Part shown: positions 1 to 10,082 of the stretch, piece after piece
Position numbering within the stretch: position 1 is the first letter of the stretch
Layout of the letters: every line of letters begins with the position of its first letter
IMG/VR virus record: IMGVR_UViG_2917855067_000003
Span: 1-10,082 of that record
Direction: 5' to 3' (one strand)
Length of the DNA: 10,082 nucleotides
Source of the DNA: a virus
Taxonomy: Duplodnaviria; Heunggongvirae; Uroviricota; Caudoviricetes
Program-made: the position numbers and the translations under genes
Notes under the pieces: generated by a model
What the model was told of the DNA's origin: nothing
Databases searched by the model: none
What the model saw: the letters and a program-made list of their open reading frames with translations, nothing else

Positions 1-1095
1 TTATGTTGCTACGGGTTCGTCGCATTTCGGTAGCCAGTCGCCGTAGCTTTCCTCTTTCAGCGACAGATTGGTTTGTATCCCCTGCTTAGTGTGCCGCTTC
101 TCATAATTCAGGCCGTACTCTTTCAGCATCATGGGCAGCCCCAGCCCGAACATTTTCAGGCTGAGTACGTTCCTGTACCCGTTAGCCTCCATATAGGCCA
201 GATACGCGTGATAGAGATATTTACGATAATTACGCGGGATGATGCTGGCATTCCCCATAAACATCCCGTTGGTCTGCGGGAGCATTTCCAGATAGCCGCA
301 AAAATCAAACGTAGGGTCAGCATCGCGCTTGATGCTGAGCGCCTCGTCGGAATTCTGCTGTGACTGGAGCAGTGCGCGGGCTGCCATCGGGTCGCTGAAC
401 TTCTGCATGAGCTGGCGCACAATCACGGCCAGCTCGCGCGCAATTTTATCCCTGAGCTGCGGGTCGCGTTCCTCCGGCGCAATTTGCTCCGGGAAGTGAA
501 TAATCACCCGGCGACGTGACACACCACCGCTGCGGTCGGTGAAGCGCATGGGGTTATTGTTCACTGCCAGAATCACCGCCGGAATGTGTGTTGAGTACGG
601 GTTCTGGTATTTCGGGTCAACCGAGACCGCATCGCCGCCGGTGATGGCCTTAAGCCCTGCGCCGTCACCGCTCCATTTTTCCTGGTCAGGCAGACGGATA
701 AGCGAGAAGCCAATCAGGGAGGCACGCTTGCGCGGGTCTTCCAGCGTGTCGATGTCGGCTGACGTGGCGTTATCTTCCCCGGCAAGCAATGTCGCGATTT
801 CAGCCAGAATACTTTTGCCACTCCCGCCGGGACCGGTCACTTCGAGAAAGAGCTGCCAGTCGTAACGGTTCGCCAGCACCATAAACAGCGCGGCCAGAAT
901 CACGTCGCGTTTTTGTGGATTTTTACCGGCTGCACGGTCGAGCCAGCGCCAGAAGTTCGGCGCGTGCGTCCCCAGCCGTTTCCCCTTCCACCGGCGGGGT
1001 AAAATCCACATCGCACAGCGTGCGCAGCCAGTGCGATTTGTGGTGCGGGCTGAATACGCCGCTTTGGGTATCGAGTACCCCGTTGCGAAAGCCAA
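1..1095 (-). CDS. alpha: P4 alpha-type primase/helicase, C-terminal segment (SF3/D5-like helicase and origin-binding part); homologous part is about 4..975, stop codon at 1..3
   Basis: ORF-track translation contains Walker A GPGGSGKS and the long C-terminal region typical of P4 alpha. It lies in a different frame from 923..2335 and overlaps it. The ATG at 1095 is an ORF-caller start, not necessarily a biological one. Confidence 0.8.
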   Translation of the reverse strand: MAFATGYSIPKAAYSARTTNRTGCARCAMWILPRRWKGKRLGTHAPNFWRWLDRAAGKNPQKRDVILAALFMVLANRYDWQLFLEVTGPGGSGKSILAEIATLLAGEDNATSADIDTLEDPRKRASLIGFSLIRLPDQEKWSGDGAGLKAITGGDAVSVDPKYQNPYSTHIPAVILAVNNNPMRFTDRSGGVSRRRVIIHFPEQIAPEERDPQLRDKIARELAVIVRQLMQKFSDPMAARALLQSQQNSDEALSIKRDADPTFDFCGYLEMLPQTNGMFMGNASIIPRNYRKYLYHAYLAYMEANGYRNVLSLKMFGLGLPMMLKEYGLNYEKRHTKQGIQTNLSLKEESYGDWLPKCDEPVAT

Positions 1096-2335
1096 TCAGA
1101 CGGCGCGCCGGTGTATCCTGCTGCGGAATAATCAGTTTCAGGGTCTCCACAACTGAGGCGATTTTCCCCGACGAGAACGGGGCGCGCAGACGCTGGAATA
1201 AGTCAGCCACATTCCGTGAAAAAGTGGCGACAGGGATATTTTTCCAGATGCCGTTTTCATAGCGGGACAGGAGCTGGCCGTTCGCATCCACTGCCAGCGC
1301 TTCGCCGTAATGCTCATGCACCCGCAAAGCCTTGTCGCTGGCGCTCATGGCGGTAAATTCCGCCTCGCTCATGGTATCAAACGGACTTTGCGCCGGTGGC
1401 CGGATGGCGTCATAAATCGCTTTGCGTGTGGCTTCCTCGCCGTACTGTATAAACGCATCATTCCAGTCACCGAATACCGGCGGCAGGGCAACAACGCCCT
1501 CACAGGCGTCTGCGGCCGCAGCGGCTTTACTCTGGCCGTCGCCGTTAAGGTCACGGTCGGCAGCGAGCACAATCTGACAGGCCGGGGACTTCTGACGGGC
1601 AAGGCTCGCCAGAGAAAGGAGGTTCACGGAGGACAGTGCTACCATGACGGTTTCCCCGGTCAGGTGATGCACGGTGAGTGCAGTCGCATACCCCTCTGCA
1701 ATCCACAGGCGTTTTCCGGCCTGTTTTTTCCCTTCGATGGTATGGCATGCTCCTTTTACCGCCCCGCCTTTCAGGGTGCGTTTGAGACCGTCAGAATTGA
1801 TAAGCTGAAGGTTAACCAGTGCGCCGGTATCGTCATACAGCGGGACAACCACATCACCGGCGCGGAACGTCACGCCGCCGGTTTTGTGTGTGGCCGACAG
1901 TACCGGACATTCCCGGTCGGGGAAACCCTTTCGGGTCAGGTAGGCGTTGCCGCTGGCCGGTCGGGTTTTCTCCATGAGCCTGACGGCCAGTGCGGCCGCC
2001 GCTTTGCGGTCAGCCTCCGTTTCAGCCTCTGCGGCCGCAATCACTTCCGGGGCAACCGGCGGCAGATTGCCGGTCACGGCGTTCACCTTCCCGGCGGCCT
2101 CTGAGGGAGTCACGCCAAACACTTTTTCTACCAGCTTAAGCCCGTCACCCGCGCCGCATTGATTGCAGAACCACGTCCCGCGCCCTTCTTTATCGTCAAA
2201 GCGGAAACGGTCAGAGCCGCCGCATACCGGGCAGGACTGATGGCGGTTTTTAATTACTTTCACACCCAGCGCAGGGAGAATGCGCGGCCAGTGGCCGCAC
2301 GCCTGTTTTACCGTTTCTGTTACGTTCATTTTCAT
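923..2335 (-). CDS. alpha: P4 alpha-type primase/helicase, N-terminal segment (zinc ribbon and primase domain); ends prematurely at 923 unless a frameshift is corrected
   Basis: Translation from MKMNVTETVKQ contains the zinc-ribbon motif CPVCGGSDRFRFDDKEGRGTWFCNQCG. The ATG at 2335..2333 is preferred over 2386 because AGGGAGA lies 9 nt upstream. The frame stops at 923 while the homology continues in another frame. Confidence 0.8.
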   Translation of the reverse strand: MKMNVTETVKQACGHWPRILPALGVKVIKNRHQSCPVCGGSDRFRFDDKEGRGTWFCNQCGAGDGLKLVEKVFGVTPSEAAGKVNAVTGNLPPVAPEVIAAAEAETEADRKAAAALAVRLMEKTRPASGNAYLTRKGFPDRECPVLSATHKTGGVTFRAGDVVVPLYDDTGALVNLQLINSDGLKRTLKGGAVKGACHTIEGKKQAGKRLWIAEGYATALTVHHLTGETVMVALSSVNLLSLASLARQKSPACQIVLAADRDLNGDGQSKAAAAADACEGVVALPPVFGDWNDAFIQYGEEATRKAIYDAIRPPAQSPFDTMSEAEFTAMSASDKALRVHEHYGEALAVDANGQLLSRYENGIWKNIPVATFSRNVADLFQRLRAPFSSGKIASVVETLKLIIPQQDTPARRLIGFRNGVLDTQSGVFSPHHKSHWLRTLCDVDFTPPVEGETAGDARAELLALARPCSR

Positions 2336-2349
2336 CGTTGTTTTCTCCC

Positions 2350-2670
2350 TCAGTGCAGTACCGGTGCGGTGATATGACGGGCGCAAAGCTCATCCATCAC
2401 GGCCAGCCCGAGAAAGGACAGCGACGGGGCAGCTTTCAGTGGTCCGACTTCCATTAAATCTTCCAGCAGGGCACAGGCAATCTGACGGCCTTTTTCCTCG
2501 CCGTGCTGGCGCAGGTAGAAGCCCTCCAGCTCGGCGGCAATGGCGCTTTCCAGCGCGTCGAGGGTGAGGTGCGGGTAGCGGTGCTGGCGTTCGCACAGGG
2601 TCAGCCATGCACAGGCCACTGCGCGACGATACAGCGCGGCGCGTAATACGGGCGGTAATGGCTTTTTCAT
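2350..2670 (-). CDS. hypothetical protein (106 aa), P4-like leftward operon, immediately upstream of alpha
   Basis: ORF with SD GGGGAGGG upstream of the ATG at 2670. Its start overlaps the stop of the preceding ORF (ATGA), and it ends 14 nt before the alpha start. Function not recognised. Confidence 0.6.
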
Positions 2671-3971: not shown

Positions 3972-4105
3972 GGTGAACAGTGGTGAACAGACGGTGAACA
4001 GTCAGACCCTCAACTATTCACCCTTTAACTTACTGTATTAATTATCTTTTTATTTAAGGTGAACAGTGGTGAATAGTTATAAGTAAAAAAATAAACGGTG
4101 AGTAA
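3972..4105. repeat. iteron array GGTGAACA(G), the reverse complement of the P4 type I iteron TGTTCACC; ori/crr-like alpha binding region
   Basis: GGTGAACAG at 3972-3980, 3982-3990, 3993-4001 and 4058-4066; GGTGAATAG at 4068-4076; inverted copy CTATTCACC at 4013-4021; degenerate GGTGAGTAA at 4097-4105. Spacing is 10-11 bp within clusters, and an AT-rich stretch (about 3890-3960) lies alongside. Confidence 0.7.
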
Positions 4106-4152
4106 GGTTTTCCTGCGACCTTTCTCTGGCCAGCCGGTTTTTAAGGTCTGTT

Positions 4153-4170
4153 TGTGCCAGCATTCTGACA
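4153..4170 (+). promoter_or_regulatory. Ogr/Delta box (TGT-N12-ACA) of a Psid-like late promoter
   Basis: TGT at 4153-4155 and ACA at 4168-4170 are separated by 12 nt. The dyad centre is about 80 nt upstream of the sid ATG, consistent with a -55 activator site and a short leader. A weak -10-like CAGAAT lies near 4205-4210. Confidence 0.45.
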
Positions 4171-4242
4171 ACGGCAATGAATCGTGTTGTTGTGCAGGAG
4201 GCGTCAGAATCATTTCAGGTTGAACACACGGAGAACCTGAAC

Positions 4243-4986
4243 ATGAAACCCGAACTCATTATCAAAGCCATGCAGACCGTTATCAGTAAACAGGATGAAG
4301 GCGCGGAACAACGCATTGCCGGTGCGCTGGCCGCACTTAACGAAGCAAAAGATGCACACACGGCCAGCATGGGTAAACTCAGCGACATTGAGGCTTCCAT
4401 TCAGCGTTGTGAGCAGGAACGACAGACCGCCCTCAGTGAAAGTGCACAGGCCGAACAGGACTGGCGCAGCCGCCTTCGAACTCTGCGCGGCAACCTCACT
4501 CCTGAACTGAAAGCTGAACACAGTAAACGTATCGCCAGCCGCGAACTGGCTGATGAGTTCACCGGTCTGATTACCGAGCTGGAGAAAGACAAAAGTCTCG
4601 CCATGCTTGGCGCATGCTCCTCCGGTACGGCTTATATCAGCGCCCATGAAAAAGCATTCACCACTTACGCCAACAGCGAATGGAAGAAGGTGCTGGCCGG
4701 TATCAGCCCCGCACTGTTACGTGCCTTCCTGTTGCGTATACGGTCGCTGGAAATGAGCGGAGAAACCTCATCGCGTGCGACCGCGACACGTGAGCTGGGT
4801 GATGCCCTGAATCTGCAGTCAGCCCTGTATCATTTTGATATGGAGCAGGAGCCGGTCCTGTCCGTAACGGGCATGAATCGCCCGGTCATAACCGGGGTTG
4901 ATATGGCGCTGTTAAGAAGCCCGGCCAGACGGATGAAGCTTGCCGCTGAACTGGCTGCAAAATCCCACGAACAGGCAGAGGGCTGA
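4243..4986 (+). CDS. sid: Sid-like capsid size determination (external scaffold) protein, 247 aa
   Basis: Assigned by position as first gene of the sid-delta-psu operon, by its charged, helix-rich composition, and by a length near P4 Sid (about 244 aa as I recall). Start at 4243 has SD GGAG 9 nt upstream; the ORF-track start at 4177 would lie inside the promoter. Confidence 0.6.
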   Translation: MKPELIIKAMQTVISKQDEGAEQRIAGALAALNEAKDAHTASMGKLSDIEASIQRCEQERQTALSESAQAEQDWRSRLRTLRGNLTPELKAEHSKRIASRELADEFTGLITELEKDKSLAMLGACSSGTAYISAHEKAFTTYANSEWKKVLAGISPALLRAFLLRIRSLEMSGETSSRATATRELGDALNLQSALYHFDMEQEPVLSVTGMNRPVITGVDMALLRSPARRMKLAAELAAKSHEQAEG

Positions 4987-6269: not shown

Positions 6270-6950
6270 TTAAAAATGATTAATCAAGATTTGATTTTTT
6301 TTAATTGCTCGTCTACTCCAGTGCTCTGTGATGTTTTGAGTGAAGTCGGGACGAACTATTTTTGCTCTAAAGTCCACTGCTTCAAGAGATTCTACTCTCA
6401 AATATATTCCTTCTGATATTTCATCGCTGAATTTTGATTTTTTTATATAAGAAGATAACTTGTTTAGTTCAAAGAAACCTTCGTCAAGAAAAGGAACGCA
6501 ATGAAGGTTTGCATTTGATATTATTTCGTTTCTTTGAGGAAGTGGTAAAAATATTTTTCTTTTCTTATCGAATACATCAAATGCTAAAAAATAGTCAGGT
6601 AAGCGGGTGTAGTGAATAGAATGTTTCGCATAACACCATTCCCCAAATATAATGTATTGGTCTCGAATGTAGTCAAAAAGGTTGTCGCGGTTGTAATTTA
6701 ACCAGTCAGGAAGCATTTTCCATTGGCCATTAAAAGGTTGATGTAAAAAAGAACCCCTATTTTGAAGGAGTAAGTCTGCATTACCATTAAAGGAAATGCC
6801 TAGATTAGCTCCGTCAATTTTCTCTTCTATTATGGTTTTTTTAGTTGAAAGCAATAATCGTTCTTTATCTGAAATGACCTTGTCATCCCTGACGTTAGGA
6901 TGGTAAAAAATATGTGGAGTGGACGGGAATTTATATAGTTCATCTTCCAT
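6270..6950 (-). CDS. Rnl2-type RNA-ligase-like nucleotidyltransferase (standalone adenylyltransferase domain, about 226 aa)
   Basis: Translation carries ligase motifs in the right order and spacing: motif I EEKIDGAN (KxDG), motif III FGEW, motif IIIa FDVFD, motif IV EGIYLR, motif V RAKIVR. ATG at 6950 has SD AGGAAG 9 nt upstream; the ORF-track GTG at 6977 has no SD. It is AT-rich and overlaps the upstream gene by 11 nt. Confidence 0.7.
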   Translation of the reverse strand: MEDELYKFPSTPHIFYHPNVRDDKVISDKERLLLSTKKTIIEEKIDGANLGISFNGNADLLLQNRGSFLHQPFNGQWKMLPDWLNYNRDNLFDYIRDQYIIFGEWCYAKHSIHYTRLPDYFLAFDVFDKKRKIFLPLPQRNEIISNANLHCVPFLDEGFFELNKLSSYIKKSKFSDEISEGIYLRVESLEAVDFRAKIVRPDFTQNITEHWSRRAIKKNQILINHF

Positions 6951-7479
6951 TTGGAAACTTCCTATTATATGTATCACTTATGAGTTTTTCGTCAGCAAAA
7001 TGAACCGTTATGCCTACATCAGCAAGAGATTCTTTCCAGCCCCACCATTTACTATCAGTTGCTTGAAAAATAGGCGGTTTGTCTACGTGTGCGTATGACG
7101 TGGCTACAAATTTTCTATCCGATAAATCAAAGTTTGTCAGGCCTTCATGTACAGGGAACTCCTCATAGCTAGTTTCGGTTTTTGTAATTCTTACGATGTT
7201 TTTATCAGGGAATTTCCATTGGTTAGTGTAAATCCATTTCATAAATTTATCACCAACGCCAGGGGCTCCACTCATGCTTAAATTTGAGCGATACTCTTCA
7301 ACTATTTCTTGTGCTTCATCAATAACTAACCCACCATTTGCAATTGCCTTTTCTATTATTTCAACACACTCTAAAACACAGCTTAGAATATCATCTGGAA
7401 TGTTTTTTATATCTGTGTGCATATTAGCTGTAACAGCAACATTTGTATCAATTAAAAAAGCAGCAGGTAATTTATTCAT
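6940..7479 (-). CDS. PIN-like domain protein (putative nuclease), 179 aa
   Basis: N-terminal AAFLIDTNVAV resembles the first PIN strand with its conserved Asp; further acidic positions (DEAQE, ATDSKW, ISDTY) fit the PIN pattern. SD GAAGG upstream; start overlaps the ATPase stop (ATGA). The domain call is by eye. Confidence 0.6.
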   Translation of the reverse strand: MNKLPAAFLIDTNVAVTANMHTDIKNIPDDILSCVLECVEIIEKAIANGGLVIDEAQEIVEEYRSNLSMSGAPGVGDKFMKWIYTNQWKFPDKNIVRITKTETSYEEFPVHEGLTNFDLSDRKFVATSYAHVDKPPIFQATDSKWWGWKESLADVGITVHFADEKLISDTYNRKFPNGR

Positions 7480-8861
7480 TTAGATGTACCTTCTTTTTCT
7501 TTTATTCTTCTTTTTAACGCTGATTTTGCTTGCTCTGTAATGTCTGTTAATTCATCACCAAAGAAATTATCTGGCCAGTTGAGGATATTTCCAAATGTAT
7601 CGATTTGCAACGGTGTTAATTTTGGGGTTGAAGATGAAATGTCAGAGAAGTACGCGGAAACTTCCTCGGATTTTATTTTGTCTTCTGCTATTCTCCTTTG
7701 CAGTCTGCGAAGGAAATGCTCTGAGTGAGTTTCTATAATTAGCTGTATGCCTCTTGATTTTCCATTTTCTCGTGAACGGATAACATCGATCATAACATCA
7801 GCAAGCACTGATTGTGCTTTTGGGTGTAAATGAATTTCGGGTTGTTCCATCAAAATTATTGAGCCTGGTTGAGCGTAAAAGCATTGTACTAGAACTGGAA
7901 GAACCTGAGAAACCCCAAACCCAACATCTGGAAGGTCTACCCACTGTTTAGAGCCTTTAGTTTTAACTTTGACTTCATATTCTTGACGATGTTCTGAAAT
8001 TGCTTTTACAGAAAAACTATCAATTAAGTCCATTTGTTTTAATTTTTCAGCGATGATTTCTTCTAATGGTTTATTTTTCTTTTTATAATCAAGGCCGATT
8101 CTTCTTTCTTTTGATGAAAGAATGGCGGAAATTGCATTTTCACCTGCATAACCTACGCTTTCTGGTGAAATTCCAGTCCATGGATATAATCGTTCAGGCT
8201 TATTTCTCATTGGCCCTAAGTAACATACTGAACGGAATAGCTTTTCATGCATTAGATTGATGTCTTGCACAAAATCAGCATTTTGATGGTAAGCTACGAC
8301 TTCCTCAGGGAAACCATAAAATCTAACTACATCTTTTATCGCCCAAACCCTACCCTTCTGTCGAGTTAGAGTGAAATTGTTAGTTTTGATTTTATAATTT
8401 GACTTAGCGTCACGAACAAGTCCTATAGATACATCATCTTTTTCTTTCTGATAGAATGTATATGAGAATCCATTGACATATAAGCTATTATTCTCAGCAT
8501 TAAAAGATATCTCAGATTTAAAATGGCATATTTTCGATAAGGATATAATGCTGTCTAATGATGATTTAGAGTATAATTCATCTATTGACCAAGAGTACTC
8601 AAATGAGATGTTCTTGTTAACGTCTCTCATGTTAACCATGTCTTGAAATGAGCCCAATTGTACTGCTGAGTTTTTACCTCCTGGGTAGAATGGGGTTTTT
8701 CTATCAGATGATTCAACCGTTTGTTTAAGCATCATGAGAAGCTGGCCAATACTAGATTTACCAGAGCTATTTGTTCCAAAGAAAAGAGTGATAGGTGACA
8801 TTTTGATTTCACCTGTATCAGTCCAAACCTTAAAATTTTCTACTTTTAATGTTTTAAACAT
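7476..8861 (-). CDS. ABC-type ATPase (AAA_15/AAA_21, OLD/RecF-like), 461 aa
   Basis: Walker A GTNSSGKSS near the N-terminus, Walker B region ILMEQPEIHLHP and H-loop ETHSEHF near the C-terminus, with a long insertion between, as in defence-associated ABC ATPases. SD AAGGA upstream; ATG is only 3 nt after the int stop. Confidence 0.85.
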   Translation of the reverse strand: MFKTLKVENFKVWTDTGEIKMSPITLFFGTNSSGKSSIGQLLMMLKQTVESSDRKTPFYPGGKNSAVQLGSFQDMVNMRDVNKNISFEYSWSIDELYSKSSLDSIISLSKICHFKSEISFNAENNSLYVNGFSYTFYQKEKDDVSIGLVRDAKSNYKIKTNNFTLTRQKGRVWAIKDVVRFYGFPEEVVAYHQNADFVQDINLMHEKLFRSVCYLGPMRNKPERLYPWTGISPESVGYAGENAISAILSSKERRIGLDYKKKNKPLEEIIAEKLKQMDLIDSFSVKAISEHRQEYEVKVKTKGSKQWVDLPDVGFGVSQVLPVLVQCFYAQPGSIILMEQPEIHLHPKAQSVLADVMIDVIRSRENGKSRGIQLIIETHSEHFLRRLQRRIAEDKIKSEEVSAYFSDISSSTPKLTPLQIDTFGNILNWPDNFFGDELTDITEQAKSALKRRIKEKEGTSK

Positions 8862-8864
8862 TTC

Positions 8865-10082
8865 TTATCCTTTGCTTTTAGATTTTATGATGGAAGCATT
8901 TTGGATTTCATCACCCCACCAAGCTAATAAATCACTACGTTGTTTTAAATAATTTGCACGGTTATATGCTCTTCTGACTTCATTTTTATCTGTATGTGCC
9001 AAAGATGATTCAATTATATCAGCGTTGAAACCAGCTTCATTCATAGTTGTACTCGCGATAGAACGTAATCCATGTGCGACTAATTTACCACCATAACCTA
9101 TTCGCTTCAAAGCGGCATTAGCCGTCTGGCTATTCATAGGTTGCTGTGGATCATTTCTACTTGGAAAAATATATTCTCTATGTGCACTGATTGGCCTCAT
9201 TACTTCCAGAATCTCTAATGCTTGAGTAGAAAGAGGTACGATGTGTTCCCGTTTTGCCTTCATCCGTTCGGCTGGGATCGTCCAGAGTTTGGCATTGAGA
9301 TCGATCTCTGCCCATCGTGTACCTGAAGCCTCAGAAGGTCGCACGAGAGTCAGAAGCTGCCATTCAATAAGACAGCGAGTCGAAACAGACAGATTCGACA
9401 TCACCAAAGAGCGCATTAGCTTCGGCAATTCTTCCGGCCGAAGGGTCGGCATGTTTTGCTTTTTTGGTTTCTCAAATGCCATTCCGACACCTGATGCCGG
9501 GTTTGCATCAATCAGGCCAGTGTTGACGGCGTAGATCATGATTTCGTTAATACGTTGTACCAGGCGGCGAACCGTCTCTAATGCGCCACGTGCTTTGATT
9601 GGCTCCAATGCTTCAACTATCGTTCTGGCCTTAATTTCCTGAACAGGTATTGCGCCTATTGCGGGGAACACGTCCTTATCTAAAGAGCGCCATATATCTT
9701 TCGCGTAGTCTTCAGTGACGCTTTTGCTCTTCATTTTGAACCAGTTGGCGGCCACAGTTGAGAAAATGCTATCCAGCTCAATCTGACGCTGTTCTGATGC
9801 CTGCTCTTGTTGCTGTTGCGGATCCATACCCTGCGCGAGTGTGGTTAAGTGCTGGTCGCGTATCTGACGAGCTGCTGCGAGAGTAAGGGCAGGGTATGAG
9901 CCGAGACTCAAATTAGTTCGGCTGCCACTGACCGGACGTTGATAGCGGAAGCGCCAGAGTTTTTTACCGGTGGTTTTGACGAGCAAGAACAGGCCGTCAC
10001 CATCATGAAGGGTGAAGTCTTTTTCCCGAGGTTTGGCTTTAAGGATTTCGTTGTTAGTGAGGGGGCGTGTGAGGCGCGCCAT
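8865..10082 (-). CDS. int: P4-type tyrosine integrase (405 aa)
   Basis: N-terminus MARLTRPLTNNEILKAKPREKDFTLHDGDGLFLLVKTTGKKLWRFRYQ is the P4-integrase arm-binding domain; C-terminus has HGLRSIAST and RRAYNRANY (catalytic Tyr). The start codon is the last 3 nt of the window. Confidence 0.95.
   Translation of the reverse strand: MARLTRPLTNNEILKAKPREKDFTLHDGDGLFLLVKTTGKKLWRFRYQRPVSGSRTNLSLGSYPALTLAAARQIRDQHLTTLAQGMDPQQQQEQASEQRQIELDSIFSTVAANWFKMKSKSVTEDYAKDIWRSLDKDVFPAIGAIPVQEIKARTIVEALEPIKARGALETVRRLVQRINEIMIYAVNTGLIDANPASGVGMAFEKPKKQNMPTLRPEELPKLMRSLVMSNLSVSTRCLIEWQLLTLVRPSEASGTRWAEIDLNAKLWTIPAERMKAKREHIVPLSTQALEILEVMRPISAHREYIFPSRNDPQQPMNSQTANAALKRIGYGGKLVAHGLRSIASTTMNEAGFNADIIESSLAHTDKNEVRRAYNRANYLKQRSDLLAWWGDEIQNASIIKSKSKG

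Follow-up and report, generated by a model that had tools for sequence, protein, structure and literature searches.

The DNA analysed here, referred to as the window, is a stretch of 10,082 nucleotides that runs from the stop codon of an alpha gene (position 1) to the start codon of an integrase gene (position 10082). It is 100% identical to PDIE01000013.1 (assembly GCA_004745295.1), a contig of Escherichia cryptic clade II strain E3356 (PDIE00000000). In the PDIE01000013.1 record the element adjoins smpB, and the annotation pipeline (PGAP) called no protein across alpha. The features of the alpha region, together with a cluster of origin-like repeats, are as follows.

1..2335, minus strand: P4-type alpha gene (primase, helicase and ori binding), 2335 nt as deposited and 2334 nt (777 codons plus stop) in relatives
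923..2386, minus strand: upstream ORF, with the alpha ATG at 2335; 470 aa, comprising the zinc ribbon, the Toprim primase and most of D5_N
2138-2248, minus strand: zinc ribbon (Pfam)
1436-1708, minus strand: Toprim domain, with EGYATA at 1679-1696 (Pfam and sequence)
1..1095, minus strand: helicase-frame ORF, 364 aa, native alpha sequence from about 975 downward
511-837, minus strand: SF3 ATPase core, within the helicase-frame ORF
811-834, minus strand: Walker A motif GPGGSGKS, within the helicase-frame ORF
about 25-327, minus strand: ori/crr-binding winged helix (match to 1KA8, E 4e-61, ORF residues 258-357)
976..977, minus strand: frameshifting base in codon 453, GG versus a single G in every relative (C to CC on the plus strand)
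971, minus strand: A to G substitution, E455G in the helicase frame, which makes the GGGG run 973-970 (polarised with outgroups)
970..1004, minus strand: series of short homopolymers (T4, C4, CC, GG, GG, AA, G4, A3, GG, G4), read from the sequence
3972..4065, minus strand: ori-like cluster of four perfect P4 type-I iterons (TGTTCACC; repeat taken from the P4 annotation)

The alpha gene is divided over two ORFs that overlap at 923-1095 in different frames of the minus strand. The 470-aa product of the upstream ORF consists of 452 native alpha residues followed by 18 out-of-frame residues (AGDARAELLALARPCSR), and it ends at a TAA stop codon at 925-923. This division is not a chance juxtaposition of ORFs, because the Pfam domains matched by the two halves are specific to alpha and follow each other in the expected order. 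We aligned the site with phage P4, four satellites of E. coli and, later, three contigs of the Logan assemblies. Relative to these sequences, a single additional base is found in the window, a G at 976/977, such that AAC-G-CTGG of the relatives becomes AACGGCTGG. When the extra G is deleted in silico, an uninterrupted protein of 777 aa results, the same length as P4 alpha. The 325 codons that follow the shift are all open and otherwise ancestral.

A preliminary description of this DNA had recognised a primase ORF and a helicase ORF overlapping in different frames, and both are indeed found (2335..923 and 1095..1, minus strand). Its further expectation, that together they span about 777 codons, the length of P4 alpha, and are separated by a single indel, is borne out by the in silico deletion, and the alignment to P4 alpha and its relatives that it proposed for pinpointing the base identifies that indel as an insertion (+1). 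The description had placed the frame switch at about 969-990, beside homopolymer runs. The extra G does fall within this bracket, but not in either of the runs that were named, since CCCC at 982-985 and GGCGGGG at 992-998 both read the same as in the closest relative (Logan contig SRR33454285_249671, here L011). The duplicated G is instead flanked by two G4 runs, at 985-982 and 973-970, which are C4 runs on the other strand.

We then compared the encoded domains with those that characterize the P4 alpha family. The N-terminal zinc ribbon and DnaG-type Toprim primase of that family are represented by Zn_Ribbon_Prim (aa 30-66, E 3e-19, Pfam) and by Toprim_3 (aa 210-300, E 4e-13, Pfam), the latter with EGYATA at aa 214-219. 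In the repaired protein, D5_N (aa 375-467) is followed by DUF5906 (aa 500-608) with GPGGSGKS at aa 501-508, which is the family's arrangement of D5_N and then an SF3 ATPase core with a Walker A motif; in the deposited sequence, the native part of D5_N stops at aa 452, and the ATPase is encoded in the other frame. The C-terminal winged-helix domain that binds ori and crr is recognised both by Pox_D5 (E 2e-16, Pfam) and by the P4 origin-binding domain (PDB 1KA8), which matches over 100 residues. Cognate type-I iterons are present in ori-like and crr-like positions (see below). A single polypeptide of about 777 aa that carries all three activities is obtained only when one G is removed. Judged by its sequence features, the gene is a member of the P4 alpha family in every respect except that it is not a single ORF.

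The genes around alpha are those of a P4-like satellite. As in Moura de Sousa & Rocha, we defined such satellites by seven co-localised core components, namely int, psu, delta, sid, alpA, epsilon/ash and alpha, and all seven are found here in the corresponding order. They are represented by Phage_integrase (405 aa), Psu (188 aa), Ogr_Delta (79 aa), a gene in the sid position (286 aa), Phage_AlpA (88 aa), Phage_ASH (183 aa) and alpha, which is recognised at the DNA level; DUF5375 (106 aa, orf106) is present as well. The sid gene is identified by position only, as the 286-aa gene has no Pfam match. With the exception of alpha, all of these genes (int, psu, delta, the sid-position gene, alpA, ash and orf106) are called intact. 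The start of the sid-position gene (window 4126-4986, plus strand) in GenBank looks non-canonical or wrong: the 286-aa call begins at 4126, the first ATG, GTG or TTG of the ORF is further downstream at 4177 (269 aa), and the call in the Logan contig is 247 aa.

The TGTTCACC iterons, whose repeat was compared with the P4 annotation (crr), are the cis sites bound by the C-terminal domain of alpha. The ori-like cluster at 3972-4065 lies between alpA and the sid-position gene, and is presumably the ori of the satellite. A crr-like cluster with three perfect and additional degenerate copies is found just outside the window, past the alpha stop codon (L007 18914-19000). Between the alpha stop codon and these crr-like iterons is a terminator-like hairpin (CAGACCGGCAACAGCCGGTCTTTT).

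The element also carries cargo. The hotspot between psu and the integrase gene contains a three-gene block (window 6270-8861, minus strand) that encodes a 461-aa ATPase with AAA_15, AAA_21 and DUF3696 domains, matching HEC-03B of PADLOC (E 1e-124), a 179-aa protein matching HEC-03A of PADLOC (E 2e-25), and an RNA_ligase-family protein of 226-235 aa (PF09414) with no PADLOC match. This last protein may be an unrecognised third component of the candidate defence system HEC-03. About 420 nt beyond the window, after alpha and the crr-like iterons, L007 encodes a 293-aa protein with PvuRts1I-like_N and SRA domains (19278-20159), a combination that belongs to a type of restriction enzyme dependent on modified cytosine. 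This gene lies immediately outside the int-alpha limits that are usually used to delimit a satellite. At this position, a further relative (L009) has an RVT_1-TIR protein, and it could be that the position after alpha is a second variable cargo site.

We searched for the extra-G allele in other genomes. It is absent from 5,426 complete E. coli genomes, in which the matches are always one base short (2399/2400, 600/601 and 63/64) and the best identity of a 64-mer is 96.9%. The 120 best protein clusters retrieved with the 470-aa query, whose hosts are Citrobacter, Salmonella, Enterobacter, Escherichia and others, all have exactly 777 aa and align with residues 1-452 only (96% of the query), and none of these 120 clusters contains the out-of-frame tail or is a homologue of about 470 aa. 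Exact-product look-ups, made for independent assemblies of the allele or for a continuation of the Logan contig beyond its break (see below), returned no record for the 470-, 364-, 336- and 333-aa ORFs. A scan of IMG/VR for the exact extra-G pattern gave no match. The same pattern occurs once in a Myxococcaceae metagenome-assembled genome among GTDB species representatives and once in JGI metagenomes, in a contig of 71% GC without similarity to the window, and we discarded both as chance occurrences. Even the closest relative, L011, which is 99.7% identical, lacks the extra G, and its alpha frame is open across the site up to the end of the contig. Among the sequences searched, the extra-G allele is thus unique to strain E3356.

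[quoted passage not shown] It was sequenced to 40x with Ion Torrent only, as single-end reads of 35-400 nt; MIRA and SPAdes served for the assembly and PGAP for the annotation (PMC6639607). A second assembly of the same element and its flank exists, namely the Logan assembly of run SRR6148328. Over 14,035 nt, this contig differs from the GenBank contig by 0 substitutions and five 1-nt deletions; given 0 mismatches in 14 kb, which is the basis of the assignment, the run almost certainly belongs to strain E3356. The deletions, relative to GenBank, are at window positions 1551, 8700 and 9422 and at flank positions 4717 and 6035 of L013, and they shorten T7 to T6, A9 to A8, A5 to A4 and AA to A and remove one single A, that at window position 1551. 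They split int, the HEC-03B cargo ATPase and alpha. This comparison is an error profile dominated by indels, and it calibrates how unreliable single-base indels are in the E3356 reads.

The preliminary description had pointed to an independent assembly with one base more or fewer, which would restore a single frame. The Logan contig also reads GG, and it ends 2 nt past the extra G, at window position 975. The other end of this contig begins exactly at a T6 run in nadK, within unique sequence, which suggests that both ends are places where reads disagree on the lengths of runs. We infer that the break reflects a homopolymer-dense stretch that was not settled by the reads, and that it is silent on G versus GG. 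We rejected the break as conclusive by itself, as the T4 run starts exactly k-1 = 30 nt upstream and heterogeneity of this T run may contribute. The distance presumes k = 31, which we take to be the value used in the Logan assembly.

The published error profile of the platform is relevant here. In Ion Torrent data, short homopolymers are over-called and long ones under-called (Bragg et al. 2013, PMC3623719). Run-specific high-frequency indels occur at about 1 per kb, and just 29% of these fall in homopolymeric regions; they lead to frameshifts in assemblies, and the insertions among them involve A/T oftener than G/C (PMC3623719). The sequencing project comprises 16 genomes, whose densities of coding sequences lie between 0.910 and 1.046 per kb and tend to be lower at higher coverage (Spearman -0.50, p 0.05). 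At the lowest of these densities, E3356 would be expected to have about 320 coding sequences fewer than it does, which as a rough proxy amounts to a split gene in about every 15 kb. A single apparent frameshift in the approximately 22 kb that are visible fits this rate. Substitution errors on Ion Torrent are about ten times rarer than indel-type errors.

A second change lies close to the extra base. When polarised with outgroups, alpha in the lineage of the window has three derived changes: a synonymous substitution at 2255, the extra G and A971G. The last two are 6 nt apart, and because derived changes in the gene are so few, they are probably coupled. A971G is also found without the extra G (AAC-GCTGGGGAC) in the intact 777-aa alpha P0071/L017, and since this intact gene carries A971G alone, the substitution is a viable natural SNP. 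The gene in L017 (positions 4276-4435 of a Logan contig from ERR11819932) is otherwise unrelated, with 96% protein identity, and its E455G is independent. Residue 455 is otherwise a strongly conserved glutamate: of the 120 best protein matches, 117 match the motif, and 116 of these have E. The presence of E455G in both L017 and the window could mean either that glycine is tolerated at this position or that the change is recurrent.

Together, the two changes also create a potential hairpin. Its arms, CCCCGCCG (999-992) and CGGC(T)GGGG (978-970), form an 8-bp stem with a bulged T in the derived sequence only, and both changes are needed (ddG -3.0 kcal/mol); 5% of random pairs of an insertion and a substitution equal this value. 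A pair of changes that creates a hairpin resembles quasi-palindrome mutagenesis and is weak evidence for a real mutation. We rejected it as proof of one, both for the 5% expected by chance and because with a single templated patch the bulged T would be gone as well.

In our judgement, the split in alpha is probably an Ion Torrent base-calling or consensus error and not biology. We favour this explanation because of the platform, the indel-prone data, the type of error, the break in the Logan contig, the uniqueness of the allele and the lack of any other decay in the element. The true sequence of E3356 would then be AAC-G-CTGGGGAC, encoding an intact 777-codon alpha in which E455G is a genuine polymorphism. 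Enough reads would have shown the single G between the two G4 runs, the second of which would be supplied by A971G, as GG for this over-call to reach the consensus; from the chemistry, lagging or leading signal of a neighbouring same-base 4-mer may inflate the flow of a 1-mer. Primase, SF3 helicase and ori/crr-binding domain would still be joined in a single polypeptide, and the satellite would stay replication-competent. Several observations nevertheless speak against an artefact. The GenBank consensus has GG and so does the Logan contig, the former is correct at the five other indel sites, and the change lies outside any long homopolymer and near a substitution. That two of the three derived changes in 2.3 kb are neighbours points to a single, possibly mutational, coupled event, and the hairpin stem that the pair creates resembles a quasi-palindrome product, with the chance frequency of about 5% given above. 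Moreover, frameshift pseudogenes are documented in P4-like satellites (PMC8628076).

Several of these observations argue for a genuine and very recent +1 insertion that inactivated alpha, possibly in one complex event with A971G, a reading that we regard as possible though rather unlikely. In this case, the gene would yield a 470-aa primase fragment without the helicase or the ori-binding domain, and the element would not replicate from its own ori and crr. Integration, excision and perhaps packaging would be kept, and the element would be at an early stage of decay into a fixed island with HEC-03 cargo. In addition to the agreement of both available assemblies and the clustering of the derived changes, the catalogue of P4-like satellites includes variants that lack alpha and frameshift pseudogenes of alpA (PMC8628076), and PGAP's failure to call a protein here is in line with an inactivated gene. 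On the other hand, the sole source of the allele is one Ion Torrent data set, and the allele was found nowhere else in the collections searched. There is no secondary damage in the helicase half or in the rest of the element, such that the insertion, if real, would be extremely young. The hairpin statistic is weak and the bulged T is at odds with a single templated patch, and A971G occurs by itself in an intact gene. An analysis of dN/dS on the helicase half has no power to decide the matter, as the gene has only one other derived substitution.

It is also conceivable that the extra G is real and that alpha function is kept, by recoding or as a split gene, but we consider this very improbable. 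With recoding, a +1 slip on the GGG-G quadruplet made by A971G would skip one G of the run 973-970 and restore a 777-aa ORF reading ...PPVEGETAGTHAPNFW..., which would differ by L454A and E455G only. Yet the shift site is not conserved, as all homologues that were compared lack the extra base and have a single ORF; no stimulator is known, no Shine-Dalgarno-like stimulator is apparent by inspection, and GAC, the 0-frame codon that follows, is a common one. We also rejected, by inspection, -1 programmed frameshifting, as the shift that is needed is +1, and transcriptional slippage, as there is no long A/T run. As a split gene, the helicase and ori-binding half would be made from ATG 1011, GTG 903 or ATG 882, alongside the primase fragment. 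In favour of this, the helicase frame is open throughout and ATG 1011 precedes the shift, but none of these three starts is preceded by a Shine-Dalgarno-like sequence (by inspection), and an internal start past the shift would lose D5_N. Finally, a combination of these ideas, in which G and A971G are real and arose in one hairpin-templated quasi-palindrome event, and low-level +1 slippage on GGG-G makes the element a self-attenuated replicon, seems to us extremely unlikely. If it were true, the element would produce abundant free primase and a trickle of full-length alpha with L454A and E455G.

As alpha is essential for the replication of P4 (PMC8628076), the element would be unable to replicate from its own origin if the extra base were real. 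The preliminary description had reasoned that the product would then be a primase without its helicase and iteron-binding domain, and this conditional statement is correct, as the 470-aa product ends before both the Walker A motif (aa 501-508) and the winged helix. The domesticated satellite that it proposed on this ground received no positive support. Nothing indicates a decaying, domesticated element, and the frameshift, if real, is extremely recent. The other possibility that it raised, a homopolymer sequencing error, is the one we favour in view of the platform, the indel-prone data and the unique allele, except that the site is not a homopolymer run; rather, a 1-mer has become a 2-mer between two G4 runs. 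One questionable base thus decides whether the satellite is scored as replication-competent or as defective. Caution is therefore warranted with satellite censuses and arguments for domestication that count disrupted core genes, as these will over-call decay in draft genomes from flow-based sequencing. If the base is real, the element adds another case of a P4-like satellite that was recently pseudogenised and has retained its defence cargo. This would be of minor significance, chiefly as a very young example of a known phenomenon, since events of this type are already catalogued.

Compared with known systems, the alpha gene of the window resembles that of P4 itself (NP_042036.1, 777 aa), with 81% nucleotide identity over the whole gene. 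The two share the order of Pfam domains (Zn_Ribbon_Prim, Toprim, D5_N, SF3 ATPase and Pox_D5), the length of 777 aa after repair, EGYATA, GPGGSGKS and the match to 1KA8 (E 4e-61), as well as a preceding orf106/DUF5375 gene and P4-type TGTTCACC iterons. The window differs in the extra G in codon 453, which yields the 470-aa and helicase-frame ORFs, and in E455G. Intact alpha genes of P4-like satellites in Enterobacterales, for example that of E. coli MARGA_3 (WP_408104248.1), are closer, with nucleotide identities from 92-95% (E. coli) to 99.7% (L011) and collinear satellite genes, but theirs are single 777-codon ORFs without the extra G. If the base is real, the element also resembles degraded (Type B/C) P4-like satellites with frameshift pseudogenes of alpA (PMC8628076), in that a core gene is frameshifted and the element and its defence hotspot persist. 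However, those pseudogenes are recurrent and conserved across clades, whereas the allele in the window is a singleton without secondary decay. With regard to the high-frequency indels and short-homopolymer over-calls of the Ion Torrent PGM, of which the extra G is a candidate case, the correspondence is incomplete, as high-frequency insertions there are more often A/T than G/C and here a G is inserted. An adjacent substitution is likewise outside that signature, but is accounted for if A971G is a real SNP. The likeness lies in the insertion itself, which turns a 1-mer into a 2-mer amid short homopolymers, and in the data, a single run of single-end reads at 40x whose alternative assembly contains five 1-nt indels in 14 kb.
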